From Octopus vulgaris (lineage: Eukaryota), in NCBI GenBank assembly GCA_951406725.2, contig OX597840.1:7192001-7256000 (forward strand): 64,000 nt of DNA, read 5' to 3'. A program made the translations under genes and the position numbers. The notes under the pieces were generated by a model, which was given only the letters and a program-made list of their open reading frames with translations, was not told where the DNA came from and searched no databases. Positions 1-35,330 of the stretch are shown piece after piece; the first letter of the stretch is position 1, and each line of letters starts with the position of its first letter.

Positions 1-1283
1 TATTTACTAGATAAAACCAGCTGATCAATGCCGAAAATATTAAACTGTTGATCAACACACAACACTGTGTGTACACGTATACATGTATGTATATCAAACC
101 ATCTGGTCTATAACCATTGTAGAAATATTACTAAAACCCCTCAAATTAAGTAAAACATTAGATAATAATCCCATTAAAAACAGCCACAAATAGTTAAACA
201 AGTAAACAATATTTCCCTCTTTTAACTAAACAAATTTTGATTACATTTTTCAGGGAAATGAAAGTAAAGAAAACTGATGTGATCCATCTTGGACCAGAGT
301 CATTGGGTGACAGTCAAAAAGTTGAATAAAATGTAGACCTATATACTAAACATTGTAGTCACAATAACAGAGCCAGCAAGATTGTACCGACTCCAGTAAT
401 GGTACACCTTCTGCCAGTTGTGGAATTTCAGCAAGAGTCACAGTCATTAAAATTTGTACTGACTCAAACATAAAATACATAAACCGTAATAAAACAGCTA
501 GTTTACTAACCGCATCAACTCCAATTAAAGGTTAACTGTAATGATAGCACATAACAGCTAATTCCACAAACTCGATTATTTTTCAGCATTAAAAAAAAAA
601 TATATATAAATAAATAAAAAATAAATAAATTTAAGGTCTTCAATTAAGGAGGATCTGATAGAAGCAATTCTGTAAGAACAATATGTTAGTAAACTTCTGG
701 ATTAGATTTTTGATTTAACCCTTTTACTATAGGGTTTCTTTAATAAATATCACAGGGATAAACCTTTTTAATAACTTGTTATATAATGTCGATTTTATAA
801 AGTGAAATAAATGTTTGTTACAATGACAGAGCATTAACTATTTTGAAACCAACCCACCCATCCAGAACCAACTCTGGTTCAAAGTAATCTAAATTAAAAC
901 ATTAAAATTTCATGTTAATTTGCATTATCAAACACCAGCTTAATGGCCAAGTTGCTTTAGTAAATTCATAATTTTCGAACTCAACAGAAATATGGTAGCA
1001 AAAGTGTTAACATATTTCTATTGAAATACACTGCGATTGTTTCATTTAATTTTGAAATTAATGAAGAATTTGCTTAAGTAATTTGGTCGTTATCAAGCTG
1101 ATGTTTAGAAAATAAATTAGCATGGAATTTTGATGGAAAGTTTTAATCTTAGAACACTTTACAAGTTGACGTTTGTATCAGATACCAGAGGCTCCGAAGT
1201 AGATTTTTAAGAACTAAAAAGTAACTTGATTGTGAGCTTTCAAGCGATAAGAAATACAAATACAGGAGTTGGAATTTGAAAGT

Positions 1284-1502
1284 TTAACCCTTTAGCATTC
1301 AGATTACTATCAAGCATAATGCTTAATTATTTTCATTTTTTCAGTTAATCATGCATTGCCTCATAGCTTTGCAATTTCAATAATGCAATCGTTTATTGGT
1401 AGAATGATTAGAGCATGTATGAGACCATATCTGGCCAATTTGAACAAAATACAGGTAGATTAGTTGTGCTGGATATGGCTATTTTAAATGCTAAAAGGTT
1501 AA
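1284..1502 (+). mobile_element. piggyBac-type MITE (TTAA-flanked)
   Basis: ttaa-ccctttagcatt ... aatgctaaaagg-ttaa; related copies at 4771-4979 and 53482-53710. Confidence 0.75.
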
Positions 1503-2759
1503 CATTTCCACGAGTCTAAGATAAACCAAAAATTCTTGCCCACGTTAGCTAAAAGTTTGATAATTTTAACAATAATTAAATTATTTCAGATGAATCAAAT
1601 TTCTCATGAAAGGTTAACTGCTTTATATAATTCAAGGGTACCATGAGAACAAGAGATATGATCCCTTACTAGGGTTCACTTTCAGGTGCCAAATAGATTA
1701 CAATTTTCAGAACTGCAAAGTAACAGAACACGTTCCACTGCAGTTGGTCAAAGAAGATAAAAATTGGTGGATACTCAGCCAATAGTGAGACAGACACTTC
1801 TGGAATGAAAATATACTTCTTTATTGAGTATAACTTAACTATACCTTAATGTATTTAGATGAATGCATGAAAAGGTAAGTAAAAATAAATTTAAGGAGTA
1901 CAATAAATCCTTTATTCTGGTATTTAGAGTCTCCCCCTTTCCTTTATAATCACAAAGAAAGTTGTGAAGACTTGCTAGTTTTGTCACATTTTAGTGAAAC
2001 ACTGACAGCAATGGGTGTACATTCATTTCAAGCAAACTAAATTATTTCATAGAAGTGAAAGAAATGTACACTTAGCATTTCACAAAAGTACGTTGAATAA
2101 TCTGTTCAGTTGCATCAAGTTCACTACTGCATTTGTGGTCTGCTCAATGATTCTCAAAAGGCAAAATTGAAGTAACTGGTAACACAATGTATGCAGAGCA
2201 GTGAAAGTCATAATTAGAACTTGTAATTTATTTAAAGCCACAAACACACAGAGACACACACTCAAGATTAGAATTTTTTTAGACTATTCACCTCATCTTT
2301 ACAAACAATTTTGTATTCAAACTAAATCTTAATTAGTTTGATCATCAATGCCAGCCGTTGTTCCTGGACAATTACAGAGGACAAGATAAGCTAAAATCTA
2401 GTCTTGTACTGTGTACACATCCACAACAGGCATCCAATGATTGAATAGTATATGGGTATGTTAAACATCTCAAAGATGAGATTAATAGTCCAAAACAATA
2501 AAACTACTTCCTTAACATCTCAGACATTTAATCATATATACAAGAAACTATAGCACTCATTGACATGTGGTTGTGAAACTTTCCTAGTATTTTTATAAAA
2601 TCAAAATTCCCCTTAATTACCTAATCAAGAGGAAATATTAGAGAACATTCAAAAGGATTAAAAGGGGAGATATATATATATATATATATTTTAAAAAAAC
2701 CTGATTTTTTTTTTTTTTTTTCAATATGAAAAGACAGCATCACAAAATAGTTTACTTAC

Positions 2760-2821
2760 CAAGTTGAGACATGGTCACTAGTGAGTGATCCTATCAGAAT
2801 AGCTGTTATCACAATGAGCTG
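2760..2821 (-). other. Candidate 62-nt downstream exon
   Basis: Branch-like ctgACTAAT, acceptor ttcttctag|cag (NAGNAG), donor TTG|gtaagta. Confidence 0.5.
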
Positions 2822-4770
2822 CTAGAAGAATTCAACATTAGTCAGAATACAACAGTACTAACTGTCTAGAAGTAGACAGGAGCAGACATTTCCAGATTCA
2901 TGGCCATGTTCAGCTTGGAGAAACAATAGTAGTCCCCTTCTTTCCTTATCAGTAATCCAATCTTAAAACAGAAACCAATGTGGTCAATTATCAGATCAAA
3001 CACTTGAAACTGTGGAATTATGTTACCATTTTTTCTGGTCCATTCCATAACTTCATTTCAAGTGGCAAAAGTCAAACCTGAACTCAGCAAGATTAAATCC
3101 TCTCCATGTAAAAAATAAGATCTTAAATTTCAAATTTTTACTTTGAAAATAAAATCTACATAGATGAATCTCTTAGATTCAGATATTTATTATGCATTCT
3201 CATTTCAAAATGTGGTTGAGCTTAAATGCATACATTGTATTTTTTAAGTAATTGGTAGTTTCTTGTAATAAAATCGATACTACAAGATACTGATATCACC
3301 TTATTTACAAGTATCTGCAAGTTGTAATGAAATAAAAAGATGATGTCTAAATGTATCTAGGAGTTTCTTGTATTGAAATTAATATTACAAGATGTTGGGT
3401 ATCTCCCACTTCTGATGATAGTCACAATCCTTAATATATACTCTCAATGTTGAATCTATAGAGGGAATGAAAAAAGGTTTCCAAGTTTAAGTGCTTGGCC
3501 AAACACCAAAGGTTTTTGATATTTGTTACAAAAATAAATTCAAATAAATATTTATACATTTTAATACTGTTACATGCTAATTGCACTATGGTCACGGTAA
3601 GTCATTGGGACAAAAGCCATCTGCTTCAGTTGCATGAAGCCATACTGATGTCACAATAAAAGGGAACAATATTCTTCATAAAGAAATCTTTAAGAATTCT
3701 AAATCCAGTTATCAGTATCAGTTTGTGGGATTTTGAGACAGAATCCAGGTATTTTGGAAAAAAAAAAATGTAAAAAAAAAAAAATATCAAGCACAAATTA
3801 ATAAAGCATTTAAGTTTCATATAAACATGCACAGTTTAATACACCAATTTTTGTTATGAGAATTTATGGTTTCCTAAAACAATTTTTTAAAGAATTGATG
3901 AAAAAGCAAGTGATGGAAATCAATGAAACCTTAATTCCAAGTATCTTAGATCAACCTTTATTCACTAAAAGTGTGTAAGACTGACAGAAAGACCAAAGAA
4001 CTAAAAACTAAATGAACAAGTTTTAAAAAGACAACAACCAACTTTAATACTTCATGGAATTGAGTCACCAGAAAATAAATTGTGAACTGACATCAAAAGC
4101 ATTTTTAAAATGATGAAAGGGAAAATGCTTCCATTCAGGATACACACTTTATCCATCAACAAACAGTTAAATAATTATCAGAAATTAATTTCATTACAAA
4201 TAAATTTATAGTAGTTAGCAAGTTGACATTTCAGCTTTTAAAAGTAGGAAATGTTCATTCAAACTTAAGATATCTTGATTGTAGTTTTTAAGTAAAATCA
4301 AAGTGTAAGACCTTTAAATATTTGCTACTGTTCCTTCATATTGAATGGAAAGAATTTAACTGCAACATTTTAAAATGTTTAAGCATTACTTGGAAACCTA
4401 TTTTACTGAAATAACCACACTTATAAAAAAAAAACCCTGGTACAAATCATATTTCCAAAGGAAAATAAGTTCCAATACAATGAATTCACAGAAGTGACAA
4501 TGGAAAGTGATTAAGAAATTACTATTTCTTTTGACAGTTACATAAAGATTTTATACTAAAAAATTAAAATTACTTAGTTATTAACTTTTTTACACTCAAC
4601 TATCTTATTAACAAAATCCATTTGTAAGTTTGATTGAAACTTAATTAAATACTATTTACTTTCAAGACTAGAACCAAGAGGAAAAAATATTCTCTTAAAA
4701 AATGGGAAAAAAAAAAGACCTATAAATTATAAAAATATCAAATTTTAATAAATTCTTAAAACAGGTTTAA

Positions 4771-4979
4771 TTTACTCAAACATTTAAACTGGCCGTAACA
4801 GGTCTAAATATTCTATCTAGTTTTATATTCAAATTGGCCATGTGGCCTCTCACAGCTACCCTACAATATCACACTAAAAATAATCACATCAAAAGTTAAA
4901 TGAAAAAGCATAATTCAAAGCAATATGAATAAATTAGCAATACATTTGACAGAGTAATTCTGAATGCTAAAGGGGTTAA
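4771..4979 (-). mobile_element. piggyBac-type MITE, inverted copy
   Basis: Ends ctgaatgctaaagggg-ttaa; reverse-complement similarity to 1284-1502. Confidence 0.65.
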
Positions 4980-6986
4980 ATAAGAAAGGAAGTTATTGAT
5001 AGAGTCATAGATACTCAAAGATTGATAGAAAATAGATTATATCAAGGACTGGGGACATACTGAATTTGTTATGGACCGGATACTTTCAATCAATCTACAT
5101 TTGACTTTACGTCAAAAATACAAGTTTACCTGTCATCATGAGGTATTTTCATGGATGTGTAGATAACCTAAAGTAGAGGACTGACTTCCTTACCCACTAT
5201 ACAAGCAACGAGAGAGAAAAACAGTTTGGTGGAATGAACATGTTGAGATCAACTTATCTCAGATTTTAAGTAAGGAAGTGGAGGAGAAAAAAAAAAAAAA
5301 CAATTTTCATCAAATATCAAATTTAATTTGCATTAAAACTATCTTTTTGTTTTGTTTTTGCCAAATCTGTATGTGCATACATGCAACATGAGGCAAAACA
5401 AGGCTAATCAATTCTTGATAAAAAAATAACCAAAATCATAATAGTTACTGAAACACTAATTCCTCTATTACATCCAGTAAATAATCAAAAGGAGAAACAT
5501 ATAGAGAAATATCTCATTGAATATAGTTAACTATAGTAAGAGAATGTTTTAAAAAAGTACCTTTGACCAAATATTCAAAAATGGAATCCTCAAGAAATAT
5601 GCTTGACATATGCCAAAACAAGTATCAGATAAAATAGACCACTAACAATTTACAAAATTCATTACACATATTTAAGCATTACAATGAATTTAGGGTTGGG
5701 ATGAAAAGAAAAAAGGGGTTAGAATAAGCAGCAAGCTCTAAATCTTCCCTACAACATAGATTGGCCAAACCCACTTACCATACAACAGCTTTAGGGTATA
5801 AGCCTTATAGAACAGTGGTGACCAGTTGAATACATACCTGCATTTCAGATCCACATGCTGGTATTCAGTAGCACAAGGATTCTCCAAGTAATTCATATTC
5901 CAACAAGGTACTTCGTATTTCATCCAAACAAGGACAGAATTTAGAAAGCGTTCCAGACACTTAATTTGCATGGGAAGTTTTCAAAGTAATTGCCAAAATG
6001 AACAGAGTCCAGCCATCAGTATTTAAGTATGAAGTATTTAAAAAAAAAAAAAAAAACTAAATGGCTTTCTAAATCAAGAATTCTTATGTAAACTTAAGTT
6101 GCACAAGTACTGTTCGTCAAATGGGAAGAGAATCAGAACCGTCGAAGGAGAAAAACGGTTGATGATATTGCAGGAAATTAAGATATAATTGCAGAAGAAA
6201 TTCCCATTTTATCGGGTGAATTTCTCCCCTCACTCTTTAAATCAGAGATGCTGGTATTTCATTTGCATAATACTTCTCAATATCATTCAAAAGTTCTACT
6301 TTTCAGTGAAATTCTTTATATCAAGGACTATTTGGTGTAATTTTTCACATCATGTTATATAACTGTATATATATATCAGGTCAAGAAATATATGTATCAA
6401 ACTTAGGTGAAAAAGCTTATACGGTATAAAGTTCATCTTGGAAACTTTCAGGATTTCCATGCTTCGAGTCTTCATAATCAAATTAAACAAAAGAACTTCA
6501 GAAAATCAAATGAGCAAGGGATGGATATTGCTTCAGGCATCACAAGTTCGTTCCAAAGTTAGTGATTGAAGTGGATCAACTTTTAAAAAGAAGGCACTAC
6601 ATGAAAGAATTAAGGAATGGGGAGTGGGGGTATGATGAGTAGATAGGGGGGCAAAATAAAAAGTTTACTGATCCAAGTAGAAATGATTTCAAGACCCCCT
6701 CATATCATTTTAAAATTAAATGCTTGGGTTACGTGGAATCTAAGTGAAATCATCAAATTGTCTCATAACAATTTAGTATCTTTGCATGGATGTCGTATTT
6801 CTGCAATATTGTTGTTGCTGATACAATTTCCGATACCTACCAGTATTCATACAACACAAGTGACATGACCAAATGGCGCAGTATTAGCTTTCACAAAAGA
6901 ACTTATGTTCTATATTATCATCATCTGTGCCGAGTTGTCAAGAGCTACCATTATCTTGTCAATCATCGAATTTCTTCCATACTTAC

Positions 6987-7017
6987 CAAGGGAAACACTG
7001 TAACCAATTATGCCAAT
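6987..7017 (-). other. Candidate 31-nt downstream micro-exon
   Basis: ccaatttttctag|ATTGGCATAATTGGTTACAGTGTTTCCCTTG|gtaagta. Confidence 0.5.
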
Positions 7018-7065
7018 CTAGAAAAATTGGCTGACAATTATTCGTTACCACATTCACTCTAGCCT

Positions 7066-7625
7066 AGACAGTTTTCTACAGGTAAGACAATTTTCTTAGA
7101 TTTAGAAAAAACACAAAAGAGTTTTAAAAACAGAGAGTGGTAGAGGTAGTTTTTCTTAAGAAAACTATCTAGAGATAGTTTTCTTAAACAGAAAGAAGCA
7201 GATTTCATACAGATAGAGACAGTTTACTTTAACACAGAGAAGCAGTTTTCTTAAAACACACAATAAGTTTTCTTGGAAAGAGACAGTTCACTTAAACAGA
7301 GAGGGAAAGAGAGATAGTTTACTTAACCCTTTTGATACCAACCCATCCGAGATTGTCCCTATTTAAGACACAGGCTTAAAATTTTCCATTTAAATTTCAT
7401 GTTAATTTGTTCCAAACATCGGTCAAAGTTATTTTACTATATTCATTATTTTCAAAATGATTTTAAAAGGGTACATTTGAACAGAACTACAGTAACAAAA
7501 GGGTTAAACAGAGTTTTCTTAAACAGAGACAATTTCCTAAAACACAGAGTTTCCTACACATTCTCACAAACCACAAGTATTTCCATGTGCAGTTTCTTAG
7601 ATAAGTGCACATAGTTACTTAGACT
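7066..7625. repeat. Degenerate minisatellite of about 20-nt units (consensus ~AGAGACAGTTTTCTTAAAC)
   Basis: More than 10 imperfect copies of cagtttt/acttaaac, interrupted by the 7323-7507 MITE. Confidence 0.65.
7323..7507. mobile_element. piggyBac-type MITE, second family (related copy at 834-1010)
   Basis: ttaa-cccttttgatac ... gtaacaaaaggg-ttaa. Confidence 0.7.
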
Positions 7626-9230
7626 TGTGCACACACTCACACGCATTATGTAAAGTATGAAGTACACATAAGTTTGTGACAGACACTTTCCTGAACAGAA
7701 AACATCTATCACAGCTTGTCTGAAGAATTTCATTAAGTATAAACTTCAATAGTAACTAAGTTTACAAACAAATTGACTTTCAAATTTCCAAGTTTTTTAA
7801 CATTACAATTATGACATTATCCAAAATCATTTAAATATAATACTTAATGAGATTCTGAAATCAGACAAGCCAGTAAACATATACTGCATTCAGTTGTTGA
7901 GCCCATGCGTTACAGAAAGTTTTTCCCAGTCCTCCAGTTCACCTAGACTTTTACAGCAAAAATTTTACAGTGATTGCTTCCATTAACAGCAGGTATGGCT
8001 TCAAAAGATACACTGTACTACTAGTATACTAATGTTCACAAGTATACTTGAGTGGTTGCTGGCATAAATAAGCTATAGCTATGGTTATGCCAAGAGTTGG
8101 GTAAACTTGTATCTACATAAAATGATTGCAGAAATTTCAAGTATTTGGAATGCTTCATCCATTACATGTGTGACCTAACTGTTTATAGTCACAACTTGCA
8201 CCAAGACATGTTAAAATTTTTTCTTTTCTTTCTTTTGTTAATAGCCAGAGAAAAATAAAAATTAGCACAGTATTCAGAGTAGCAAATTTATTGACATTTA
8301 AAAATTATAGCAGTTTTTTAAAGTCTTTAGACATTAATTGATATTAAGCAAATCATTCCATTGTTTTCTATTTGCTTTGCAAAATTAGAAAACTTTTTTC
8401 TTCCAATGAATGTTTGAAATTACAACAAATATCTCATCCTATATACATCATATATGTATATATAATGTATATAGTTATTCATTTTAAATATTTACATTAA
8501 AAATTAAAATGTTTCATTGTAATAGCAAATGAAACAATTCCTTAATACCACTTCAGGGTGTGACAAAATGGATAAGCAAGAAATGAAAAGTCAAGCAGTG
8601 AATATTTATGATGAGGTTTACAATTCACCCTAATAAACTGCCATTTCATAATCCTCAATTTGCACAAGTTAATGCTTGATGAATACTTGGAGACTAAGAT
8701 TAGAGAAATTTGCCTTGCTCTCTCAAAGGAGTAATTTTCCCCCACAGTTTAGAAATATCTTAAAATGAATAGAAATCCTAGAATACAAGATTAAGAGAGT
8801 GTGTATGGTCCAAGTATCTAAACACTTGTTACATACATCTGCCAAATGTGTCTTGTTGAAAACAAGACTGAGAAATTGTGCACAAAATCTAATTGTATAA
8901 AAATGTATTTGGCATGTCATGGAAGGAGAGGAAGGGAAGTTGAAGTTTTTATTTCTATTTATCAGATTATCACAAGAAGCATTATTTTGAAGCATTAGCT
9001 TTTTTCTTTAGAAAACTAAATTAAGTATATAAAAACTTTTGAAATGATCAAATACCTCAAGGAAGAGGGCTGGTGTAAAATACACCCACACGTTTAAATA
9101 CAAGATGTAAAACTATAATGCTACTTTTGGTTTTATCAGGTTACACAGTGTACTTCAGACTTTAAAAGAAAATAGACTTCCCCAGAGCTATGACCAGCTA
9201 AAGAAAGAATTATTGTGAGGGACTCCTTAC

Positions 9231-9279
9231 CACTAACTATATAAATCTTGAATTGAAATCAGAGAAATCTGAAACCCTG
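9231..9279 (-). other. Candidate alternative downstream exon (QGFRFL*) of the DBHS gene
   Basis: Long pyrimidine tract ...ctccctctttgctgttcca(t)n-TAG|CAG| (NAGNAG); donor GTG|gtaagg; phase-0 reading stops after 6 codons. Confidence 0.55.
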
Positions 9280-9966
9280 CTAAAAAAAATGGAACAGCAA
9301 AGAGGGAGGAGCTAAAGAGGAAACAGCCCAACGATATCAAGTTCTCGACCATGACATGCCAAATCTGAAATCTAAAAAATGTGCTATAAGGAAGCAAATC
9401 AGAGAAAAAGAGTGTAATTTTTTCCCCTTTAAAAGATGACCAAACAACCATATTGACAACCAAATTTGATAGTTTAGGAACAAGATCATGTACCGTGTAG
9501 CTTCCCAATGCTACAGATGAGCCAGGGATGGCTTTGGGTAAGTGGCCAGAGCTTATAATAAAAGATGGCATCAATGAACAGGCCAAATTGCAGTGGCTTA
9601 TGAAGTACATGTGGCTTTTTGCATTTTACTTTTTTCCTGCAAGATCTTTTTAACACTAAGATAGGGAATAATTTAAGGAGCTCACTTATTAAAGTTGCTG
9701 CATGAGACAATGACATTACTGAGATGGAAAAACTCAAGTCATTGGCAGTAACACTTAAAGTTGTATTATCTTCAGTAAAGTTCAGTTTATAGGTATAGTA
9801 AGTCAGAAATGACTATAAGATCATCAGAACGACCCAAAAGAACATTTTGCCAAGATAATACAACTTCTATAAAGAAACAATGATTTTTAAAAAATTAATA
9901 AATAAAATGGAAAAAAAAAAAAAATCAGTTAAATCAGGCACAAAATTCAAGTTAAAGGTCACAATG

Positions 9967-9972
9967 TTTATT
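9967..9972 (-). terminator. Candidate polyadenylation signal of the main isoform
   Basis: First AATAAA on the minus strand after the stop (about 285 nt), followed by U-rich/poly-T downstream sequence. Confidence 0.55.
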
Positions 9973-10254
9973 AGACGGTTAAGTCGAAATGAATATGACA
10001 AAATCAGAGTCATGATGATGAAATCCTTATTTTAGACTATGAATAACCAGTGAAACACTGATATGAAGAGCACAAGGATGGTGACACCAACAAGTAATGG
10101 TTTTACTACTGTCCACTACATGATATTAAGTTCTCCAGGAATAAATTGATACATTTACAGTAAAAGTTAAGATAAATGAGTTGCTGTCAAAATAATGTCA
10201 ATGGCATGGGTGTAAAGTTTTTTTTTTGTTTTGTATCATTTTGTTTTTGTTTTT

Positions 10255-10647
10255 TTAATATCGCCGCATTCTTTTCATCTCAGCATAATCTTCTCTGTTG
10301 GCATTCTCTCTGCGTCTGTCCATCATGTTACCTCTGTCAGCACTATTTCCGCTTCCACTGCTTCCACCGCCAGCTCCGCCACTGCCGCCGCCACTACCTC
10401 CGCCGCCTCCTCCTCCTCCTCCACCACCTCGCATGCCACTGTTGCCAGCCCCAGGCATGTTCCCTCCCATATTGGAATTGAACAAGCTGGGTGGACCATT
10501 TGGTCCACCACCCATCTGACCACTACTGATAGGTGGGCCGCCACCGCCACCCATGGCACTGGCAGCACTGCTGCCCATTCCTGCTGACCCGTAATTGTCA
10601 GTACCTCCAAAGCTGTTATCCCCAGGTTGATCGTAGCGAGACTGACG
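10255..10647 (-). CDS. NONO: DBHS gene terminal coding exon (Gly-rich tail plus C-terminal NLS)
   Basis: ttgaacag|CGT CAG TCT CGC TAC: [15 protein letters not shown]...[12 protein letters not shown]; resembles the KRRRY* end of NONO/PSPC1; a second in-frame acceptor lies 6 nt further in. Confidence 0.92.
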   Translation of the reverse strand, partial: RQSRYDQPGDNSFGGTDNYGSAGMGSSAASAMGGGGGPPISSGQMGGGPNGPPSLFNSNMGGNMPGAGNSGMRGGGGGGGGGGGSGGGSGGAGGGSSGSGNSADRGNMMDRRRENANREDYAEMKRMRRY

Positions 10648-13600
10648 CTGTTCAAGTTAAAAGGGCATATCATCAGAATGAGTAGTAAGATCAAGGGAGA
10701 TATAAATATATATTTTATAAATATATATCTTAAAATATATATATACATATATATATATTACATAAATGTAAATTATGTAAATATATATATATATTATATA
10801 AATATATATCTTAAATATATATATTATGTAAATATACATATATAAATATACATTATGTAAATATATATTGTATTAAATATATATTATATAAATATATTTT
10901 GTAAATATATATAAATATGTAAATATATATCAATATATATTATATAAATATATTCATGCAAATAAGTCTGCAAATATATATTATATATCAAATATATAAA
11001 TATGTATTTATCATGATTATTATATATATGTAACAAATATATTATATAACAAGAGAAAGGCAAATAGCATTATAGGAAGGACGCATGTAAAACAGTTACG
11101 GAATATACTGAATGCTACAAGTCTTAGTAGAGAGGACTAGTGAAATGAAACCTGAAATAAAAACTGTATAAGATTTTAGGTTGGGTGAGTATGGAATCAA
11201 ATACAGAACCATTATTGAAACAGTCCTATTAAAATCTAATGTCTATTAAGGATATAGACATTTCTCGAAGTTAGTAGTTATAATCAGTAAGGAGCTGTCA
11301 CAAAATTAATTTAATTAAATCCTTAAAAGCAATTAAATTTACTATGGCCCTCTACTGAAAACCCTTCATAAGTTGAGTTATTTTATTAGCAACTCATTTG
11401 GAAGGGGCCAGTTTTGTTTTTATGGAAAAGGCATCCATATGTGACAAAACTGCTAAGTTTTAAATGTTAGTTTGCAGCTACTACTTATAAAGAAATTTTA
11501 AAAAGCATCTGAAAGAACAGATACTGATTTAACTTTCAGTAAATATTAAATATTCTTGCAAGTTTCCAATAAGTAGAAAGTAACAGTTTCTGTTCTACAA
11601 AAAACTAGTTAGTCGTAAATTGACAGTTTTCACTTTTTGTAACATATCCCTGGAAAAACAAGGCCAACAACTTCAAAACTGCAGTTCAGTGGAAGTTCTC
11701 AGGGATTCATTAGACAGGAGTACAAGTGAATTCCAAATACCAGTTTCAATGATAGAACGGTGTTCACAAAAGTGTTTTGTAGAATTTAGCTCTAGATCAA
11801 CCTGATTAAGTAGATCTATAAGTCGAAATAATTCTTGCCATATCCAATACCTCTTCCAGAAGGCATGAGTAACTTGTCCTTCTTTATAAAACAACAGAAG
11901 GGAAATTTGGTGGCTATTTCTAGCAAGCTGTGTGACAGCTTAGAGGGTCCCTCATTAGCTCAAGCTGTCTGAGAGCACATGCAGATTCACAAATTGAGAA
12001 GTAAGCTCCGATGTTATCACTTAAAGTACTTGTCTTGATATCTTGTTATTTCTATCTATACATATATATAAAAACTGATATATCTATACACATATATACA
12101 TAAAAAGGTGTCCCAAAAACTGTATACACACTTTAACAGCTAATAACTCAATTGTCATTTCTTTTTAGATTTATAATGAAGGGAGCCCGACTAAGCTTTG
12201 TACAAAATGCATCTACTCTAATGGGCCACTGGCAGTCAAAGAGCAAAAGACAGTTTAGGAGGGACTTTCAAATATATTCAGCTACATGACTTATCAATCA
12301 GTTGAATAAGAGAACAGACGGTACTGCTCAGAATATCCATGACTATCAACAAGTTCCATAAAGCATAAAAGAGTACCAGAAACATATTGCAAGAATTCAA
12401 GAAAATTTGTGCCCCGAGTCATGAGATGGGAATTTCAAAATTAAGGGTCCCTTGCATTTTGAAAGGTCTGGAGTTTTCCAAGTGGTACTTGGAAAGATGT
12501 GTAGAAGACTAAAACTTTTCAACGAAAGTTGCTTGAATGCGGATACATTTATACCAAATGGCTCCAGTTAACTATCGAAAGTTAGTTTACCAGGAGTTCT
12601 CTAAAGTGTGACTAAACAGGATTGATTGAACTGTTCTTTCTTAGTGATACTGTAACGACTCCCATTTATTTGCAATTGCTGCAACTGTGTCAAGGGAAAC
12701 CTTCAAGAGGACTTTGTAGATGTGGAATTTTATTTCCAGCAAGATGAGGCACCCCCACACAATCCAAGTAATATAAGGGCCTACATTTGATCATAAAGCC
12801 TTATTAGTAGAAAACCCTCTGCAGTCACTAGGCTTTGTTTTTTTTTTTTTTTGTATGGGAATACTGAAACTTTCAGGTACAAAGCTCATAAAAAGAAAAA
12901 ACAGAAAAAGAAAATCGAGTGCAACCATTGAACACATCTACACACAAATACCAAACAAAATACATTTAAAATTGACGGATATTTGTTCTCATCTTTGTTA
13001 ACACGTTTCGGATGATATACACTTCAACCTTCATCATGTGTCTTGGGGAAATTTCGAACCTGGGTTCCCTTTCCTAAGGTATTTTTCATTATTATTGTTA
13101 TTATTATTATTCAGGACACTGCATGAAATAGAATTTTGGGGTTAGTAGCCCGCGCTCTTAACCACTACGCCATATGGCATTGTGGTTAAGAGCACGCACT
13201 ACTAACCCCAAGATTCCGAGTTCTATTCCTGGCAGTGACCTGAATAATAAAACAATAACATCGAAAAATACCTTAGGAATGAGAACCCAGGTTCGAAATT
13301 TCCCAAAGACACCTGATGAAAGTTGGAGGGTATATCAGCTAAAACGTGTTAACAACAAACAAGATGAGGACAAATATCCGTCAATTGCAAATAATGTACA
13401 TAATTCCTCATCTCTTAAATATAGGAACTGCACCAAACAAAATGTTTCAATATTTGCTATTCCACCGGTTCACATTATGAGCTTGCATGTGAACCAGAAT
13501 GTTCAGTTTGAAAACAGGCATTCACAATTGAAATTTTGCCTACAGATTCTATTAAATTTTCAAACTGTATTTTAATGAACACTAACTTTATAATCCTCCA

Positions 13601-16600
13601 ATGTGTGTGTATACATTTTTGGTGGGATACCCTATATATATATGGACAAATTAGATAGCAACTTAGGTGAAGATTTCAAATCCTTATTGTCAAACAAAAT
13701 CATGGTACAAGAAAGAAAAAAAGTAAAGACAACAGCTATATTCCTAACTTGGTCATTACAAATGATAGTTTTCAGATGACTTGCAGCCAAGATATTATAG
13801 ACAATTTATCGGTACAAATATGATCGACTATGTTATTATATATAACCAAATATATTTCTATTCACTAAATACAACAAATGGAAAAGATTAAGTGAAAGGT
13901 TCCAAAAGAATTTTAAAAAATATGTAATATTTTAAAGAAACATCAATATAGAAAATAAAACAGGAACTGGTACTGGCTCATTTATAATCAATAATAGACG
14001 TAGTCACAAATAGCTACTCGACTCCTCTACACACTTTTATATAAAAAACAGTGTGCGGAGTGCATGCATGAAAGAGCAATTATTTAACACCCGTTACTAT
14101 TACTTTGGAATAGGAGGCAAAGCATGCTTTTTTTTTATATATCTGAAAGTCACTCTACATGAAGCCAAAATACCAATTGTCCCAATGAAGTTTTCCCAAT
14201 AGAACACAAGAAATGTAATAAGTGTCAAATATTCACTTTCATGGAGTTTATATTTGAAGAGCATCAAACGTGTTGGAGAGTCCCATAGGCAACCGTTGAC
14301 ACATTTCATATTAAAAATGAAGTTCAAGTGAACATCCTAATATTCTATTCAGTTTTATTGCAAAGAACTGAATTAGATGGCTTCTTGGTATCGCCAAAAA
14401 AAAAACCCACAGGGGTTTTATACCACCAAGATCATTTTTACACTGTGATAAGAAAGATATCACAGAAACAAAATATTGAATTACAAAATTTTGATTAAAG
14501 CTGTATTAAAAAATACATAAATTTGTAGGATAAATAGAGTGCGCATAATAGGAATTGTTTTTACAGTATGTGCCAAATCAATTTATTTTACTGAAGTTGT
14601 TTTGTATTAGCGGTACACAAGTGGAGATTTGATACAATTTTACATATAGAAATGTGATAGTATAATTGAATAAGTTTCACTTAGGTGAATTGTCCTGGAG
14701 AAACTCACTAAGAAAGTATATGAAATTACTCAAATAGCAATTGATATATGGCCTAGAACTAGCAATGTAAACCAGGTTTATAAATGACTGCTATTTATAT
14801 CACAAGATTAAACATTGTCAAGTGAAGACTGAATCCAACACGAGTCTACCAAGACAACTATCATAGATTCCACATGATCGGAGTCAATGCTTACGTCACA
14901 ATACTATAACCCTAACTGAAGTGGGGGTAGGGAAAAACAAACTTTTCTTTACATCAAGTTCAGCAGCTTGGATTTGGTCAACACATACAAATCAATAAAC
15001 GTTATTTTAAAATAGATTTCTTGTTAAACAAATCCTAGATAATTTATATGTGGAGATGAAGCTGGAGTTTATTTTTCACAATACTATAAACACAATTATG
15101 AAAACTGACCAAAAATGGTCAGGATTTTTTTCTTCTTCCCCGGTACTGATTTTGGTTGTTTCAGCTACCAATTTTTTTTTTTTTAATTCTCCAACTGATT
15201 GGGGTGAAATTGTGTAAAGATGAGACACAAGACCCAAGGACCATTAAAAAGAGAAACTTGTATAGCTACCGCTCTAAATTACATATACAACTTCAATGTA
15301 CCAGGATATTTTTCAATCCACTTGGAGGTGGGGGGGATTTTTGAAAAAATTTATAGGTCCTTTAAATCAGCAACTATAAATAAAATTTTCACTTACCATT
15401 CTGTTGGGGACACTTTGATTCATTTTAACCTAAAAGGATACAGTTAAATATATAAGCAAAAGTAAAACATTTATTCAAGTTTTTATTTTAGTTCACATAA
15501 AACCCAAGAATGAAAAGAAATTCGAAGAAAAGAGTTATGTAACATTTACCATAGAATTTGCAGTCATTCCTCCACCCGTTGGGCCTCCACCCATATTAGA
15601 GTTGCTAGTATTGCCACTGCCACCAGGTCCTCCACCCATGTTCTGTCCACCCATAGGTCCTTGGTTACTGTAATTGTAACCACCACTCATACTTCCTCCA
15701 CCAGTCATCTACAAAATGAAATCAATTGTCGGTTATCTACTCTTCAGTTCAAAACAAACAAGCTCCACTTGTGATACAAATATGCAATATTTAAAAAGCA
15801 CTGAGATTATAAAACCCATTGAGCTTTCATTAAAAAAAAAATTTACCTGATTCTGGCCAGGTCTGTCAAGTCCCATAGCTGCAGGAGGTGGGGGAGGTGG
15901 TGGGAGAGGAGGTGCACCAGTGTTGGTGTTTCTACCTCTCTGTTGATTATCATTCATTGCTGGACTACCACCCTACAGAGAAAATAAATGCTAGTTTAAC
16001 TATCAACAACAGACTTGTTACTATTACTGACATCACTGATTGCATGCTACGACAGCCAATGAAAATACACCAAGTTTTTAAGTGGAACAAGAAAAAAAAA
16101 CCCGCTTCCATACATCACTATTTGAAACTAAACAAAACATTTCTGGTGACTTATGTAATGTATTGTAGCAACTAACATAATACCATCTTTATTATATAAA
16201 GCACTGATAAAGTAAAGTTCCAAGAATATGAAGCTATTTGAACCAAGAGAAAGTACTGAAATTCCAATCAAGTTAACTAGTATTTTTTAAGTATAATAAA
16301 ATTCTTAAACTGATTAAATTTTTTAAATGTGAAAGGTTCTGAACACAGAACCTCTCTATATTCTTATAATTCCTTACATTTTTCTAAGAACATTTTTGTA
16401 AATGAAAAAAGCATGAAATTTGAATGAAATTCAAAATGCACAAAAAACAATTTAATATAATTCAAATTTTTCTGCATGGGCTGCAGGACAAACATAGGTC
16501 AAGCGGAACAATTCAACTCTAAAATTAAAAAAAAGAAAAAAAGCACTTGCCTGTCTTCCCATCATATCCCCTGGCCGATCCCTACCCATAGATTCTTGTC

Positions 16601-19600
16601 CCATTTGTCGACGACGAATTTCCTGGGATCTCAACAGTAAATCTGTACGCCTTCGGTCGTCTTCTTGCCGTCGCCTTTCTTCGTCCTGGCGCCTGTTTGG
16701 ATATCAATTTAAGAGAAAATTTATATAAGTAAAAATTGTCCAAACTTCTGAGCAGAAAACGATACATTCAGGCAATTAAGTTTTTCGTATGGAAAAAAAA
16801 GAAAACAATTTACCTCATTTCTAATTCTTGCCTACGGCGAATTTGTTCTTGTTGACGTATTTCTTCAAGTCTTCTAAGTTCTTCCTGCTGTCGCAGTAAG
16901 TCTTAAGGGAAAGTACAGTAAAAGATTATTGAAAATTGGCTGCAATGAATAAGGACAACACACACTACACATTCTACTACATTACCTGTGCCCACTGATG
17001 TCAGTTTCTATACAATCAGATATTCAACAACACATATCTGAAAAGGGAGGGGAAATCAACACTCAAGATAAAAACATACCTTGACGGATCATTTCAGCTT
17101 GTTGTTCAAACATTGCATTTTCCATTTCATCTTCCAATTTGAGGCGAGACTCTTCCATAGCTTTCTTGACACCTTCATGCTGTTGTTTCTCAAGTTCTTC
17201 AAGTTCTTTCCAGCGCAGACCGAACTCATATTCAAAAGAGCCGGGAGGTGCAAAGCGGGGTTCTGATTCTCTGTCCCTGTTATCATTAAGGTAAATATTT
17301 AGTAACGAGTATATTAAGAAAAAGTTTACGAGTAGGCTAGAAATACAAGAAAATTCGGAAAACTCACTTCTTGTAGGCATCAGTTTTATTGATGAACTTT
17401 TCCGGATATCCATCTTCTTCGTCCTTTTGGTCAAGGGGTTCGACTGTCACTGGACGTGGAGCACTATTTAAAAGATGATGAGTTAAGATTTCAAAATTGG
17501 CAAGACATTGAAAATTGTCAACATTAATAAGAAAGAAAAAAAAAAGAATTTACTTACGATGACAGAAGAAAAACACCCTCAGTTATTCTTTTATATGCGG
17601 CTTGAGCACCAGGTTTTCTTGCAAACTCTACAATTCCTTCACCTGTTGGCCGACCTCTATCATCAACTATGACAACTGCTCGTTCAACCTCACCAAATTG
17701 GGAAAATGCTTGATGTAACAATTCATTAGAGACGTGTTGTGATAGATTTTTCACTTTTAAGGCAGAACCTAATGATGCATAACGAACACGCAGTGTTCTT
17801 CCTTTGCGTTGCATGCCATCAAGAGCAGCTTTTGCGGCTTCTGCATTGTGACGATAATCCTACAGAAAAGAGGAAGATAAAATGGGGGGAAAATATTACC
17901 AATAAATAATTTGAACTACATCTCACAAATTCTCTATTAATTGCCTATAACAGCTGCAATATTCAAATTAGAGCAAGTGCAAACCCTAACTCATTTTTGT
18001 ACTAACATTGCCTTGATGTTGGAAAGAGTCCAGCTATCAAAGTCTGATAAACTTTTGCCAAAGTCAAAATAATGAGTTATTGATCAACTACATAAAGGAG
18101 CAATCTATGTATTTAAAAATAAAATTTATCAGATAACTACATATTTGTTAAGTGGGAATAAATGGCATGTGTAAGAGGTTATTACCAACAAAAACAGTAT
18201 GGCATTTTGTCATCATAATTGTGTGTTTAAGCCTTCAATAACTTCCTAAACAAAATTATATATTTCAGGTGTTTTGCTTACTATTAACATTTAGAATTTA
18301 TATAATACCGTTGGGATATATTCAACAAATAATCACGTTTATGCATATGTTTTTATAGCATAATATCTACTTTTGATTGAAGTTGAAACAGCTTTAAACC
18401 TCAAAATTTTTTTCTCAAATATTTGTAAGCTGTCTTCTAAATCCACACCATGTTTAATCAAGATATATTTTACTATTTTCCACGACACATTCAATCTTAC
18501 AAAGCCATTACTTTTCACCAAGACTACAAAATGTATTCGACATTTGTTATGGCCATCTCATCTGAAAAGCCACACTAGTGTTATCACATCAGAGATTATC
18601 AAATTTTACCGTGAATTGAAATATTAATGAAAGCAAATAATTCATTACAAAGGTGGAGTTTAAAAACATCTTGAAATCTATCTGTATGATGATACACCAC
18701 AAACTATTTTATCATCTGATGTTATTCATCAGTATGAAGTTCTCCATAACAGAATTCTAATTCAGTTTTTAGGTGTCTGTATGTGCACACATATACATAC
18801 ACAAATACATATTCAAAAATGTGTCTGTATGTACACACATATACATACACAAATACATATTCAAAAATGTATATTGAGAGAGGAATAGAGCTATAAAGAT
18901 ATTTTAATATGCCTCTATATCTCATTTCGAGTTGAATTTAACTGAGAATGCTAAAGCTCGAGATATATAACCTTAAAATTACGTGTGCCTGATTGCTGGC
19001 AACTTTCCAAAAAAGAGACTTCACATTTTTCACTGTCTATAACCTCAAACATACTTTCCACCTCACCACACAACAGTTCTAAAACACACTATTCATATCT
19101 TGTCAACACAGCCACTCATTTCCATTAGCCTCATCATATTCAAGTAAAAATCTAGAACACTGATGCATCAGTATGAGATAAAAGTTTTTGTTTTATCATG
19201 ATTTAAACTATTAAGATGACCAACAGAGCCATTTTCTATATATTTAACTAGCAGTATCGCCCGGCATTGCTCGGGTTTGTAAGGGAAATAACTATAGAAG
19301 CATTTTTAGAGAGTTATAGCCAAAAAATGGGGGGGGATGATGGGTTTTTTTTTTAATCGTTGACTCATCGTAGACATTTTTAGAGAGTTACTTCCCTTAT
19401 ATAATAGCGAATAAATGCATTAAAATGGGGGAAAATGATGGTAAATTATTTTTAAAATTGTAGACTCATGCTAATACCCAAAAGATACACGCTTTTGGTT
19501 ACACTGCACCGCAAAATGTGGGAGTAGTTAGGAATCTAAATCGTAGGAGACAGACACACAACTTGACTTTTATATATAAAGATTAACTATGCAGAAATCC

Positions 19601-22600: not shown

Positions 22601-25600
22601 GTAGGCCTATTCTGCTCACAGGAGGCAACTGATACATGATGGAACTCAAAGCACTGCTAAAGTATCTTGTTCCAAAGCACTAAAACTTTTGTCAATCCAT
22701 TATATTCATGTGTATGTAAATGTGCTTTGTACAAGTGTGATTAAAGCGTGATCTTGTAAGCATGACACTACTTAATCACATATTTGCAAGTAATATCACA
22801 AATGTGTTCGTGTGCTGCTATTGTCGTTTAGCATAAGATAAGCTCTGGGCATATAAATCTACCATATAAGGCATTCACTTCAATCACAACTATCCCAGCT
22901 TTTTTATTCTAGTATTTGGAAGTGCATTACCCCTGGTGACAGGGATAGGCAGATGTGGCCGTTATCTTTAGTAGGTCATACAACTATGGAGACTCCAATA
23001 TTGGCTCAAGTTTGTGAGTGTTTTGTTATTGGATACCACTACTTTTAATACTTCTCATACAATGCAACAAAACAGAAAAAACAAGCTACAGAAAGTGAGT
23101 ATCACAGAAAATGAAACAAATAGTAAGGCACTAGAAACTATGCGATTAGAGTTCTCATTGGTCATTTGACCAGCTAGAAATGTCATGTATCTAAGAGTCA
23201 GTTGCATGAACAAATGGTTTTCTTTCTCTCCAAACATTGCTCATTCACTAACCACTTTACATACCATATAAGGTGCATTTTATTGTAGCACCAGCACCAG
23301 CAGAATATATAGGGCTGAAGTGGGGGGAGGGGGTAAAAATGAAAGATTATGTGATAGGAGAAACCAATTCGTGTGAGGAGAGTGTAAGCGGCAGAAATGG
23401 AAGATAGTGTTGTAAGGAGTAAGAAGGAACAGTAACTACAAAGAATAGTGGAAGAGAACATGCGGAGACTGAAAATGGTCAATGGTATAACTGTCATCAA
23501 TATGAACTTGGCAGAGGAGGAGGTGGGCTGGAATTGAGGATAAAGATGGTAATGTTAAAAGAGTGATCCAAGTGAAGTAGTGACAAGCAGTACAGAGGAT
23601 AAGACTATGGACATCTATGTCTGCAAATTGGAGAACATGCTATGCTTGGGGTTGTATTGGATGTCATACAGCTGATGTAAACCTTTGGTACACAGTGGGT
23701 ATTATTAGTAACATACAATTCAATACACTATCTCAAGATACAAGCAGTGGTTGACAGGGTTATTGAATATAGACAGGTGTAATGTTTTTTTCTAAATTCA
23801 TGGCACCATAAACAGAAAAGACAGGTGAGGTGATAATGAATAAGCAAAACAGCCAATAACAAATTCTCTCTGTTTAATGCTGTATATATCCTACTTATCC
23901 TGTTGTTCATTTGTGCAACTAATGCACTTAAGTTCAATTCATTTCTTTGTAACATTCTCAAATCCTCTGCACTCAAGGACCACACATTAAACTTAGCATA
24001 CAAAAGCATCATATACCCTGCCCTTCACTCCTAGAAAAAAAAGCTTTTGTTGTCAGCAAAGGTAATAATTCTTTCAAGCTTCTCCAACCAGCTTTACTTG
24101 AGCACATTTCCAGAACACCCACCCATAACTGCTAAGTGGATTATTGTCTGCACATGTTAGTGTACGACTACCCTACGACTGAACCTCAAATTATTAAAGA
24201 CAAGGGTTGACCATAGAAACATATAAACAAACTTAAGTGATCCAATGCTCTGATGATGGCAAATAAACATTGTTTACACTTATAAACAAATTCACACGTA
24301 CATATGACAGTGCATAACATGTATAAAGTGGCACAAATAATATAACGAATTTAGCGTGGGGAAGTGGAATATCCAAAGTTTCGGTCAGAGGCCTTCTTCA
24401 GAATTAGGATAACAGGAGTGGAGAGGAAAGACAACAGTTTTACATCCTCTACGTGAGAGGATGTAAAATTTGTTGTCTTTCCTTTCCCCCGCTTCCTGTC
24501 GTCCCAAACCGAAGGAATATCTCTTAGCAAAGTTCATTACATTTTTTTCCATATAAGTATTGCTGACACAGACCACTAACAGTCTCTTCGAAGTCTATCT
24601 TAAACATGCAAACACACGCAATTAAACATGTACATACATACATATACTGATATACACGTTTTACGAAGCTTGTAAAGTCGTCGGATATTGGCCTTGAGGC
24701 CAATCAATTTATCGAATAGTACTGGGTTCGTGTCGAGGGACTGCCTTGTTCCTGACAAACCTAAGGTATATTCGATCTTATGCGTGTCTACACACAAATA
24801 TAGTACGTGGGAAAATGAAACCCCGTTTTATGTATTTCTACTGAAAGCAATAATCACACTAGATCATTTATTTTCTCAAGACACTTCCGAACTTGAGCAC
24901 CTCTTCCTTATTACCTTGCATTTCAAATTAAAAAACATACCTAGAATATGCATAACTAATTTTTTCAGTCATTTAACTGCGGCCATGCTGGAGCAACGCC
25001 TTTAGTCGAAGAAATCAACTACAATACTTTGAGCTTACTTATTCTATCGGCTCTTCTTGCCGAACCGCAAATTAACGAGTACGTAAACAAACCAACGGTA
25101 CTACTTAAGAGTGGTCCCGGAGCGCACACTCGCGTAAGCTAGTCGTGACTAGTCGATCCTTACTTTGTGTTTTTGTTTTATTTACTTTGTTTTAAAAAAA
25201 TGATTTACTCTTTTTTTACGTTTTATTGTTTTAAAAAATTATTTACTTTGTGTTTTATTTACTTTGCTAGGTAGTCGTAGGATCGACTAGTCACGACTAG
25301 CTAGCGCGGATGCGCGAGCGCGCACACCAGGACAACTCTTCTTACGTAGTACCCACACCAACATCATTTGTCAAGACACAAATACATACATATACATACA
25401 CGACGGGCTTCTGTAACAGTTTCCGTCTACTAAATCCACTCACAAGGCCTTGGTCGACCCGAGGCTATAGAAAACACTCGTTAAATGTCATTGCAGATTT
25501 CTTTTAATTAATTGAACGGACGGACGGACAGACAGCGTTAACCCCGTCGGATCATATCTTAAAATTTATTCAGCCATTGTCATGTTCAACAAAGTACACA

Positions 25601-26018
25601 ATCAAGAGAAGGTTAACCGTACACCTGAAAGATAAGTTTCTAATAGCTAAAATTTAAGCTGATAATCACCGAGTTTATTTAACTCGGCACACCTAAGTAT
25701 TTCTAGTTTTTTTAATAATGCATTGGATGTTAGCACTAACCTTAACTTTAATCTCATAGTTACATCAACACTACATATTAAAAAGCTTTATATATATATA
25801 TATATATCTTTACTGTCCAGAAGGGGCAAAACATAGAGAGGACAAACAAGGACAGACGAAGGGATTGAGTCGTTTATATCGCCCCCAGAGCGAAACTGGT
25901 ACTTTATTTATCGACTCCGAAAGGATGAAAGGCAAAGTTGACCTCGGCGGAATTTATAACTCAGAACGTAACGACTGCTCTATAACTTACAGCGTGCTAC
26001 TACAAACGAAACATTGCC

Positions 26019-26063
<45 letters not shown>

Positions 26064-29000
26064 TAGATAAACCAGGAGCAAGAACTACAATTTAACTTCA
26101 ATCACTGAACTTATGACCAGCCACGTGCATAGTTCGTAGAATGTTCTGAGTGGGATAAATTTGGGTTTGGCTTTGTACTTATTCATGTCGCCATCACCCA
26201 CTTACGTTTTAGTTTTGTCTATATATCGGATGTCATGTTTCGAAATGACTATTCATTTTGCATATACTTTAATGTGTGTATGTTATAAGAAACGTTTTCC
26301 TTTTTACAATGTAGCTTCAAAAAAAAAATTAAGCTGTTCAATTAATTAAAAGAAATATCTGCAATGACATTTAACGAGTGACATTTAAGCACTGACAAAG
26401 CTTACTCGGAATAACCAAGTCTTATTTTTGTATTTCCTCAAATTGTCTTAGCATTATCCAATGAAGAAATCATCATCGTTTAAAGTCCGTTTTCCATGCT
26501 AGCGTCGGTTGGACGGTTCGACCAGGATCCGGGAAGCCAGGAGGCTGCACCAGGCACCTGTGATCTGGCAGTGTTTCTACAGCTGGATGCCCTTCCTAAC
26601 GCCAGCTGCTCCGTAAGTGTAGTGGGTGCCTTTTACGTGCCACCGGCACGGGTAACACAACTACAATTTCCATTTGATTTGGGATCGGCACTTCACACAT
26701 CTCTCCTAATCCATCAGTAAGTACATGACCATACCAACGCAAACGTCTCTCCTGCACGCCACATCCGATACTTCTTATGTCCAACATTTCACACTACACA
26801 TCCAGCGGATCATGCTAGCTTCATTTCTATCGAGCCTACGCATGTCCTCCGCAGTCGCGACCCATGTTTCACTGCCGTGAAGCATGGCGAGAGACCCTTT
26901 GTCGCCAGTAGAGGAAGAAGCTTTCTAAATTTGCCCAGGCTATTCTTATTCTAGTGGTAACACTCTCTGAGCATCCACCCCCACTACTAACTTGGTCACC
27001 TAGGTTGTTGAAGCTATCAACTACTTCTAGTTTCTTCCCCTGGAGTATGATGGAATCTTTTCTGTACCTAAAACCAAAAATCGCCGAGTAAACCTATAAA
27101 GGAGTCTGCCTGTCGCCTCTCTGACCTTCCCAGGAGCAAGATGCTTCTTTATCGTGTTGTAGCAACTTTCAACAAATAGTTGAAAACATGTTGCCTCCTA
27201 TTCTCACCTCAGCACATTGGCTTCCTTGGAAATTTTAAAACAAGTTAAAAAAAACGGGCTTAAGTAGCGAGAGAAGAGATTGTGCAAAATCAATATATTT
27301 AGCTACCTCTAAAAACCACTAACATCAAAAGATACCCGTCTCCCCCGACGCCTTTCAAAATCTGTGAATATACTTCGATAATTTGGTAATGGTTGTTAGC
27401 TTCAAGGACCAAGCCGAATGGCTCCAATCTCCAAAAAAGTCTTAGAAAATGAAACCACGAATGACAAAGTTATTTGTTAATTCAATAGAATAATAATATT
27501 AAAAAAACTATCAGTTTCATGTTTTAATATCCAATATAGCTTTATGTAGGATATTCCAAGTGCAAGTTATTTTTAACCCAAATCTAGGTTTTAAAAATTT
27601 CAAACAAAGGTTTCATTTAAAATAAAAACCTGAAATAGAACGTGTACTTAAGCATACACACACACACGCAATCTGAAATCAATATCTGAATGCTATCTTT
27701 AAGGTTGATCGAGTAATGTCTGAAGAAGTAAGCCAACATATCTGCCTCGTTCTTCAATTTAGATAACAAGTAGGACACAATGTCACGCCGGATATTTCTG
27801 TCGGCGTGCCTCTTTCGGAGACGGAATTTATTTATACGACCCAACGGGGAAAAAATCGTTACAGTTAAATATCAATTATTTCCGTTTTGCACCCTGCCAC
27901 CTTTAAAAAATCGAGCCGACATTAGACTGTGTAGTAGTACAACAGTGGTCCCGGTGCGCGCACACACGTACTCGCGCATCCGCGCTAGCTAGTCATGACT
28001 AGTTGATCCTTACTTTGTTTTTTTACTGTTTAAAAAATTATTTACTTTGTGTTTTTGTGTTTTATTTACCTTGTTTAACAAAAATTATTTAATTTGTGTA
28101 AAATAAATTATTTATTTTGTGTTTTATTTATTTTGCTAGGTAGTCGTTGTAGGATCGACTAGTCACGACTAGCTAGCGCGGATGCGCGACTATGCGAGTG
28201 CGCGCACCGGGACCACTGTTCTCAAGTAGTACCCAACAGTCGCTATGTACTGTCCTCAAGTAGTACCCAAAAGTCGCTATGTGAGACGAATTGAATCAAA
28301 CACTTTTACCGGTTTACCATAGCAGCACCGACAAGGAGCTAATAATATATTAAAAGAACATACTTCCTCAATACTACTCGTCTCTTTTACAAGCTACTGC
28401 TAAAATTTACAAACATCTACGTCCTACAAAAACAACTCGTATCTATCTGTCTTGTTCAACTGCGCCTTTGTATATTATAATTCCTCCAACACCACCACCA
28501 CAGGCTGATATAGTCTAGAGTCCCCATCACCACCACCAACTGATGCAATATAATCTGAACATTTCGAGGCGAACTTTTGTCTATCATTTCACACACATAC
28601 ACATAACAGACATTTCGTTAATTCGACCCCATATCAGGATGAAATATATAATCAGTAGATTTTATACTGACGGACTAACCACTAAATGTTCTATATATCG
28701 TATATCAGTTGGTGCAAACAAGGTAATAAGTCTAACAAGAAGACAATAGTTTTCCCCAAGTTAGTTTAATTAACCTTGACCGATATTAAATAGTGCAATG
28801 TCTAGATTACTAATGCTAAATAATTATCATCGTCGCTTTTGGAATCACCTAATGTACACTCAGATGTACGTAGGCCGTAAAAATAAATAGAAAAACTCGA
28901 ATGGAAATGAAAACGTTTGACATAATGAAACTGTAGAAAATAATCCAATATGGCTCCACGTTGCCGAGAAAAACTAGTTGAGAGCGAGCGTGGCGTCTTG

Positions 29001-30403: not shown

Positions 30404-30440
<37 letters not shown>

Positions 30441-35299: not shown

Positions 35300-35330
<31 letters not shown>

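Follow-up and report, generated by a model that had tools for sequence, protein, structure and literature searches.

Candidate distal 3′ end downstream of a DBHS gene in Octopus vulgaris, and a possible altSFPQ-type switch

A 64,000-nucleotide (nt) stretch of the Octopus vulgaris genome (contig OX597840.1, positions 7,192,001 to 7,256,000; G000:C27:7192001-7256000), here called the window, carries on its minus strand a ten-exon DBHS gene, encoding an RNA-binding protein of the SFPQ/NONO type, and, past the normal end of that gene, a candidate alternative 3′ end (Table 1). The 665-amino-acid translation of the ten exons shares 663 identical residues with O. sinensis XP_029652490.1. Membership in the DBHS family is indicated by tandem RRMs plus a NOPS domain, for which PF00076 (twice) and PF08075 were matched in P0003, to whose isoform P0129 the translation is 663/665 identical. 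The C-terminal basic sequence KRMRRY in exon 10 aligns with that of relatives and is predicted to be a nuclear localization signal (NLS). Exons 6 to 9 all end in phase 0, and the proximal AATAAA reported in an initial annotation of this DNA was present at 9972-9967.

The initial annotation had drawn three small minus-strand exons beyond that poly(A) signal (A, B and C), spliced in phase 0 from exon 8 or 9, such that the NLS would be replaced by a short tail and a premature stop. Coordinates and splice motifs were as described: a pyrimidine tract, TAGCAG and G/GTAAGG for A (the slash marks the junction), ttttctag and G/GTAAGTA for B, and a TGACTAAT branch-like motif, TAGCAG and G/GTAAGTA for C. 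The predicted tail, (Q)GFRFL followed by TGA, was also correct and is short, in frame and NLS-less, and the stop lies 28 and 59 nt from successive junctions as claimed, with the next at 121 nt. Splice sites were scored with a matrix and compared to a background of 197,750 bases, comprising both strands of 104 kb minus the target strand and the coding donors. Exon A scored 8.5 at the acceptor and 5.4 at the donor, and the background held no pair that equaled it on both sites and one that did so on their sum. The terminal acceptor of exon 10, which the annotation had called weak, scored 2.5, higher than 5 of the 7 other coding acceptors scored, and is thus not weak for this gene; it is far below A. 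We conclude that exon A is above chance and probably used.

Strong sites had been claimed for all three exons, and the claim held for A but not for B and C, the like of which occurred 3 to 4 times per 10 kb of background. The scores of B and C fall inside the range of this gene's true exons, such that both are possible exons not distinguished from chance. Moreover, the four further candidate internal exons in Table 1 score the same as or above B and C. The A-B-C chain as drawn is unproven: B and C are at chance, and candidates of the same or higher quality occur both in the zone and beyond the window. Use of exon C is doubtful, and that of exon B somewhat unlikely. GGTAAGT occurred three times on each strand of 1-10200, and no strand asymmetry of donor motifs was seen. 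Strong acceptors immediately before a donor were noted on the minus strand at L002:9359 and L002:3020 (ttttcag/gtatgt and ttttcag/gtaaat), and at window 5196-5194 an acceptor stands 3 nt before a donor; these resemble recursive-splice sites within the long downstream interval.

Table 1. Features of the DBHS locus and its downstream interval (window positions unless prefixed; L002 and L003 lie beyond the window start)
Feature	Position	Strand	Remarks
Coding exon 1	33410-33868	minus	ATG at 33868; from translation against O. sinensis
Coding exons 2-7 and start of exon 8	15708-17859	minus	RRM2, NOPS, coiled coil
Exon 8	15550-15708	minus	Phase-0 donor at 15550; absent by skipping from O. sinensis isoform X3
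Exon 9	15397-15429	minus	33 nt; phase-0 donor at 15397, the branch point; missing in one O. bimaculoides model
Last intron	10648-15396	minus	4.75 kb
Canonical last exon, coding part	10255-10647	minus	Gly-rich tail, KRMRRY NLS-like end
Proximal AATAAA	9967-9972	minus	U/G-rich downstream element ranks second among 18 AATAAA sites
Downstream domain, in-window half	1-9800	minus	Repeat-poor, CpG-poor, T-over-A skewed; extends 10.7 kb beyond window start
Candidate exon A	9231-9279	minus	49 or 46 nt through a NAGNAG acceptor; predicted to encode (Q)GFRFL-TGA; probably real
Candidate exon B	6987-7017	minus	31 nt; chance level
Further candidate internal exon	5130-5196	minus	67 nt; acceptor/donor 4.2/4.1; absent from initial annotation
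Strong acceptor	3951-3980	minus	Score 6.4; phase-0 frame gives 9-residue tail with Gly-stop end; rival first exon
Candidate exon C	2760-2865	minus	62/59 nt from 2821/2818, or 106 nt from better-scoring acceptor 2865; chance level
Further candidate internal exon	2292-2363	minus	72 nt; acceptor/donor 5.0/3.9
Further candidate internal exon	L002:3994-3916		Acceptor/donor 8.7/5.1
Further candidate internal exon	L002:3098-3020		
Candidate last exon D	Acceptor L003:9925 (= G000:C27:7181925) to ~9270	minus	~650 nt; AATAAA at L003:9293

For the region further downstream, 40 kb to the left of the window was added to the analysis. Repeats covered 3.6% of the domain that follows the gene, 7.6% of the gene body, and 54% and 41% of the flanks. 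The observed/expected CpG ratio was 0.22 to 0.25 in two 10-kb halves of the domain, 0.22 in the 3′ part of intron 1 and 0.55 to 0.57 in the flanks, and the T-over-A skew had z values of 6.8 and 5.5 in the two halves, 4.5 in the 3′ part of intron 1, and −2.8 and −1.5 in the flanks. CpG loss in gene bodies and strand skew are signs of long-term transcription in invertebrates, and the domain is likely a long-term transcribed unit. The CpG change point lay 10.75 to 11.1 kb beyond the left edge of the window, with the first repeat at 11.0 kb. L002:1-10000 was nearly without interspersed repeats, with 50 genome-wide candidates, nearly all short simple-sequence, compared with 25,363 for an intron-1 stretch and thousands for the neighbors; this scarcity suggests constraint. 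The initial annotation had described its 10 kb as lacking the families of short interspersed elements that occupy the upstream region, and the zone is indeed repeat poor, but old interspersed repeats remain at about 1005-1190, 1280-1500, 4780-4980 and 7380-7510.

The edge of the domain coincides with an acceptor scoring 9.7 (L003:9925), followed 632 nt later by an AATAAA (L003:9293). Acceptors of at least 8.5 numbered 0 to 1 per 10 kb in the zones counted, and among 18 AATAAA sites L003:9293 is followed by the downstream element richest in U/G, with the proximal signal second. We define the interval between this acceptor and its poly(A) site as candidate last exon D. No CpG-rich promoter was found between the gene and D, nor between the gene and A. 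The possibility that the zone holds another coding gene was considered and rejected, as Pfam gave 0 matches in 39 open reading frames (19 from the window and 20 of the 31 in L002); Rfam gave 0 matches in 1-9800. No second copy or retrocopy of the gene was found, the exon A region, exon 4 and exon D each giving one match in G000 (best candidates only). We judge the chances that DBHS transcripts reach exon D to be slightly better than even.

NLS-less isoforms were collected from relatives. To be counted, a lophotrochozoan genus had to be named, and its isoform had to carry a tail no longer than 160 residues and to have a close canonical counterpart. Mactra (Gly end, but no partner from its own genus), incomplete models, proteins without a name and five gastropods whose tails run to several hundred residues were thereby left out. 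All of the relatives' isoforms are automated gene models. In 11 lophotrochozoan genera (molluscs and a nemertean) and in lizard SFPQ, the isoforms diverge at or next to the aligned (M or L)/RxxRF junction, and the octopus phase-0 M/RQSRY junction aligns with lizard SFPQ M/RPERF, consistent with a branch at a homologous last intron. In 9 of the 11 genera the last residue of the tail is Gly (Haliotis VCCPG, Patella VVSVYG, Liolophura VLVFG, Pecten MIACCG, Potamilus VLQELAIPG, Sinanodonta VLQEPAIPG, Ostrea NSACGG, Lineus VVPLPG and, in Mya, 28 residues ending VVG), but in Pomacea and Dreissena it is not. Among alternative DBHS tails of molluscs, a nemertean and lizards, Gly-stop was found in P0148, P0167, P0184, P0211, P0216, P0224, P0231, P0233, P0235 and P0119, with Gly, Cys or Pro often at position −2, and, outside the count, in the unnamed proteins P0296, P0304 and P0289. 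Outside the lophotrochozoans, Gly is the final residue in two lizards (VKVIPAG) but not in Nipponia, Limulus, Tachypleus, Acanthaster or Larinioides.

Random phase-0 tails in octopus noncoding DNA ended in Gly in 21 of 1022 cases (2%), and the corresponding binomial value for 9 of 11 is 2e-9, which overstates independence since the genera share ancestry. Pecten, Potamilus and Sinanodonta were found after the pattern had been noticed, and all three fit. The chiton has isoforms that include an 11-residue exon and others that lack it, and the two different upstream donors are joined to one and the same tail, which must therefore be a spliced exon; those of Pecten, Mya and Ostrea are not donor read-through because their first residue is not Val, and the other Val-initial tails could be. 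DBHS models of several snails and sea slugs (P0031, P0037, P0039, P0033 and P0043) carry tails of several hundred residues instead of the NLS end, and four of the five share a C-terminal motif. The Gly tails may act as C-degrons in the CRL2-KLHDC pathway, and the literature search found no paper linking that pathway to SFPQ. Gly before a premature stop is reported to give the most efficient nonsense-mediated decay (NMD), mainly of a kind independent of the exon junction complex (accessible text of PMC12278647), and Gly at −1 with Gly, Cys or Pro at −2 is enriched in SMG1-sensitive transcripts (accessible text of PMC13651330). The NMD reading of the tails is preferred because the −1 and −2 residues both fit the latter context. 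The literature covered, which mostly excludes subscription journals, yielded no paper that describes a distal end in a mollusc DBHS gene or Gly-stop tails in DBHS proteins.

Cephalopod proteins bear on the same intron. Five full-length Logan-derived cephalopod proteins (P0002, P0126, P0123, P0124 and P0133) are spliced through exon 9 and stop shortly after with Val-initial tails, and the tail of P0133 matches read-through into intron 9 of the window. These tails suggest slow removal of the last intron, as for human intron 9, and could alternatively stem from contig assembly. One JGI protein and the Octopus RefSeq models have the canonical end. Searches aimed at cephalopod C-termini (3 of 2802 and 2 of 375 candidates) gave no new tail, and an exact 24-base search of metagenome contigs for exon A gave no match; a protein scan of the same collection confirmed 1 of 71 stretches, a distant DBHS fragment, interrupted by an intron, that added nothing to the analysis. 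Forms of the NMD type would often be missing from protein listings.

These features are best explained by a second, distal 3′ end, which the gene likely has, and by a switch between last exons. In this reading, splicing from the phase-0 donor of exon 9 (or 8) would bypass the exon that encodes the NLS and lead to exon A. Slow removal of the 4.75-kb last intron and delayed cleavage at 9972 would let the stronger A acceptor, 0.7 kb downstream, win, and the RNA would continue to exon D, some 20 kb further on. An internal exon (B, C or another) would place the final junction over 55 nt past the stop and expose the RNA to NMD, and RNA escaping decay would encode an NLS-less protein that keeps both RRMs, NOPS and the coiled coil. 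The DBHS protein itself may promote the distal choice, as human SFPQ does; such autoregulation is possible by analogy, though its odds fall somewhat short of even. The proposed fit to the NMD rule has its distances right, but the stop is just 28 nt from the A donor, and NMD therefore needs at least one internal exon past A; any junction more than 50 to 55 nt past the stop rests on B, C or other chance-level candidates. An NLS-less distal 3′ end as first proposed gains indirect support from the strength of A, from the NLS-less isoforms at the same intron in other molluscs and from a transcription-like domain extending 20 kb beyond the first poly(A) signal, but the specific chain does not. From sequence, we give even odds to an altSFPQ-type alternative last-exon switch in the octopus DBHS gene, NMD coupled if at least one internal exon is included, and predict an NMD-coupled form with equally balanced confidence.

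Several observations weigh against the switch. The splice matrix was generic, built from metazoan frequencies of general knowledge and not octopus trained. Exon B (−0.7/4.6) had 79 background matches (4.0 per 10 kb) and exon C (1.2/4.6) had 65 (3.3 per 10 kb). Exon D was chosen after the domain boundary had been seen, and the skew and CpG loss likely indicate transcription, not splicing from exon 9. GFRFL was absent from the 230 proteins first collected, no cephalopod isoform with such a tail appeared in later retrievals, and every protein model retrieved for O. sinensis and O. bimaculoides has the NLS at its end. The 50- to 55-nt rule is established in chordates, not cephalopods, and its sole mollusc basis is one suggestive knockout study, according to whose accessible text NMD may act in snail embryos (PMC12277549). 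The main discordance is the absent Gly, as exon A gives Leu-TGA; a Val...Gly-stop exon with a good acceptor was found nowhere between 15390 and the point 40 kb beyond the window's left edge. Either A is not the homologous exon or, speculatively, downstream introns made Gly dispensable, the latter being in keeping with a Gly effect reported for junction-independent decay.

Three other accounts were weighed against the switch. There may be no regulated isoform at all, the domain being a read-through or termination zone or a separate same-strand noncoding gene and A, B and C cryptic sites. This account, which draws on the chance-level scores of B and C, on the one strong splice pair per ~100 to 200 kb that chance alone gives and on the sufficiency of transcription alone for skew and CpG loss, is nonetheless unlikely: A lies 0.7 kb past the poly(A) signal, as expected of an acceptor that competes, an acceptor and a poly(A) signal mark the end of the domain, a second gene would be without a CpG-rich promoter, and relatives possess an NLS-less isoform. 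Exon A might instead join D or a nearby end directly, in which case the stop would lie 28 nt before the last junction and a stable RNA would encode an hrp65-like NLS-less protein with no decay switch. No such protein was among the cephalopod entries retrieved and several internal-exon candidates lie in the 19-kb interval, making direct joining quite unlikely, even though B and C are unproven, many mollusc NLS-less forms are annotated as proteins, a protein role may predate the NMD role (accessible text of PMC12372870) and dimerization of Hrp65 isoforms sets localization (accessible text of PMC4872119). Finally, a real distal end that begins at another exon, such as the acceptor at 3980, with A bypassed or secondary, is very unlikely, for although Gly-stop is the rule in relatives and 3980 (6.4) gives the sole Gly-ending phase-0 tail among 20 acceptors of at least 5 from 15390 to 11 kb left of the window, one such tail in 20 is unremarkable at the background of 21/1022, an AATAAA lies inside its frame, and A is stronger, nearer and followed by a donor.

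Other features of the gene were noted. Exon 6 has a GC donor at 16551 (window 16551-16546), and use of a GT lying 4 nt further downstream would change the frame to read Ala-Arg-Trp-stop, the end of public O. vulgaris model P0121 (431 amino acids); that ending is either an annotation error or a second premature-stop isoform. Annotated Octopus isoforms include a 12-nt acceptor shift at exon 6 (16704 versus 16692) and skipping of exon 8 or exon 9. The observed/expected CpG ratio is 0.8 to 1.3 over 24000-36000, a broad promoter-type zone around exon 1 that also takes in the 5′ half of intron 1.

The altSFPQ transcript is raised in models of amyotrophic lateral sclerosis, and its discoverers ask which is older, the NLS-less protein or the decay role (accessible text of PMC12372870). 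A mollusc counterpart at the same intron would make that question testable across animals. The recurrence of Gly-stop tails would offer a natural example, over deep time, of selection acting on the Gly-stop NMD signal, known until now from human reporters and variants, and in the octopus annotation the gene would be ~20 kb longer than protein models imply. A newer lead than the A-B-C chain is that DBHS genes may have a Gly-stop poison end across the Bilateria. In its fullest form, which we consider rather unlikely, the NLS-dropping alternative 3′ end would be an ancestral bilaterian self-limiting switch, kept for more than 500 million years at one intron, with Gly before the stop as its sole conserved coding feature, selected to slow peptide release and to drive junction-independent NMD; the octopus would have swapped that Gly for a 20-kb noncoding exon chain, converging on the mammalian SFPQ layout.

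The octopus candidate was compared with known systems. Hrp65 of Chironomus tentans reportedly has NLS-less isoforms made by alternative splicing and, like the octopus candidate, belongs to an invertebrate DBHS gene; unlike it, these forms are described as protein isoforms imported by dimerization. NCBI models of Haliotis, Patella, Liolophura, Pecten, Potamilus, Sinanodonta, Ostrea, Mya and Lineus use the same branch point or an adjoining donor, but their tails of 5 to 9 residues (28 in Mya) all end in Gly-stop, whereas that of octopus exon A ends in Leu-stop. The relatives' tails match the context of Gly-stop NMD (Gly at −1, and often Gly, Cys or Pro at −2), which was shown in human cells and mainly for NMD independent of the exon junction complex, and exon A does not. 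Human altSFPQ (ENST00000470472/NR_136703, NR_136702) joins exon 9 to exon 11, includes three distal exons, and has two RefSeq forms 3 nt apart; it adds 7 unique residues, has no NLS, is NMD sensitive and is promoted by SFPQ (accessible text of PMC12372870). Its two later exons arose in mammals according to the same text, and therefore any octopus internal exons would be convergent. Unlike the octopus form, which is predicted, altSFPQ is proven by reads, SMG1 inhibition and overexpression. As in that prediction, altSFPQ branches at the last intron, which aligns with that of lizard SFPQ, places distal exons beyond the normal last exon, has a short NLS-less tail (7 residues, against 5 to 6 predicted in octopus) and 3-nt acceptor variants, contains further introns past the stop, and may alternatively retain that last intron, which gives a third outcome. 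On anatomy and position, with a shared branch point and a predicted tail, the octopus gene may work like altSFPQ.

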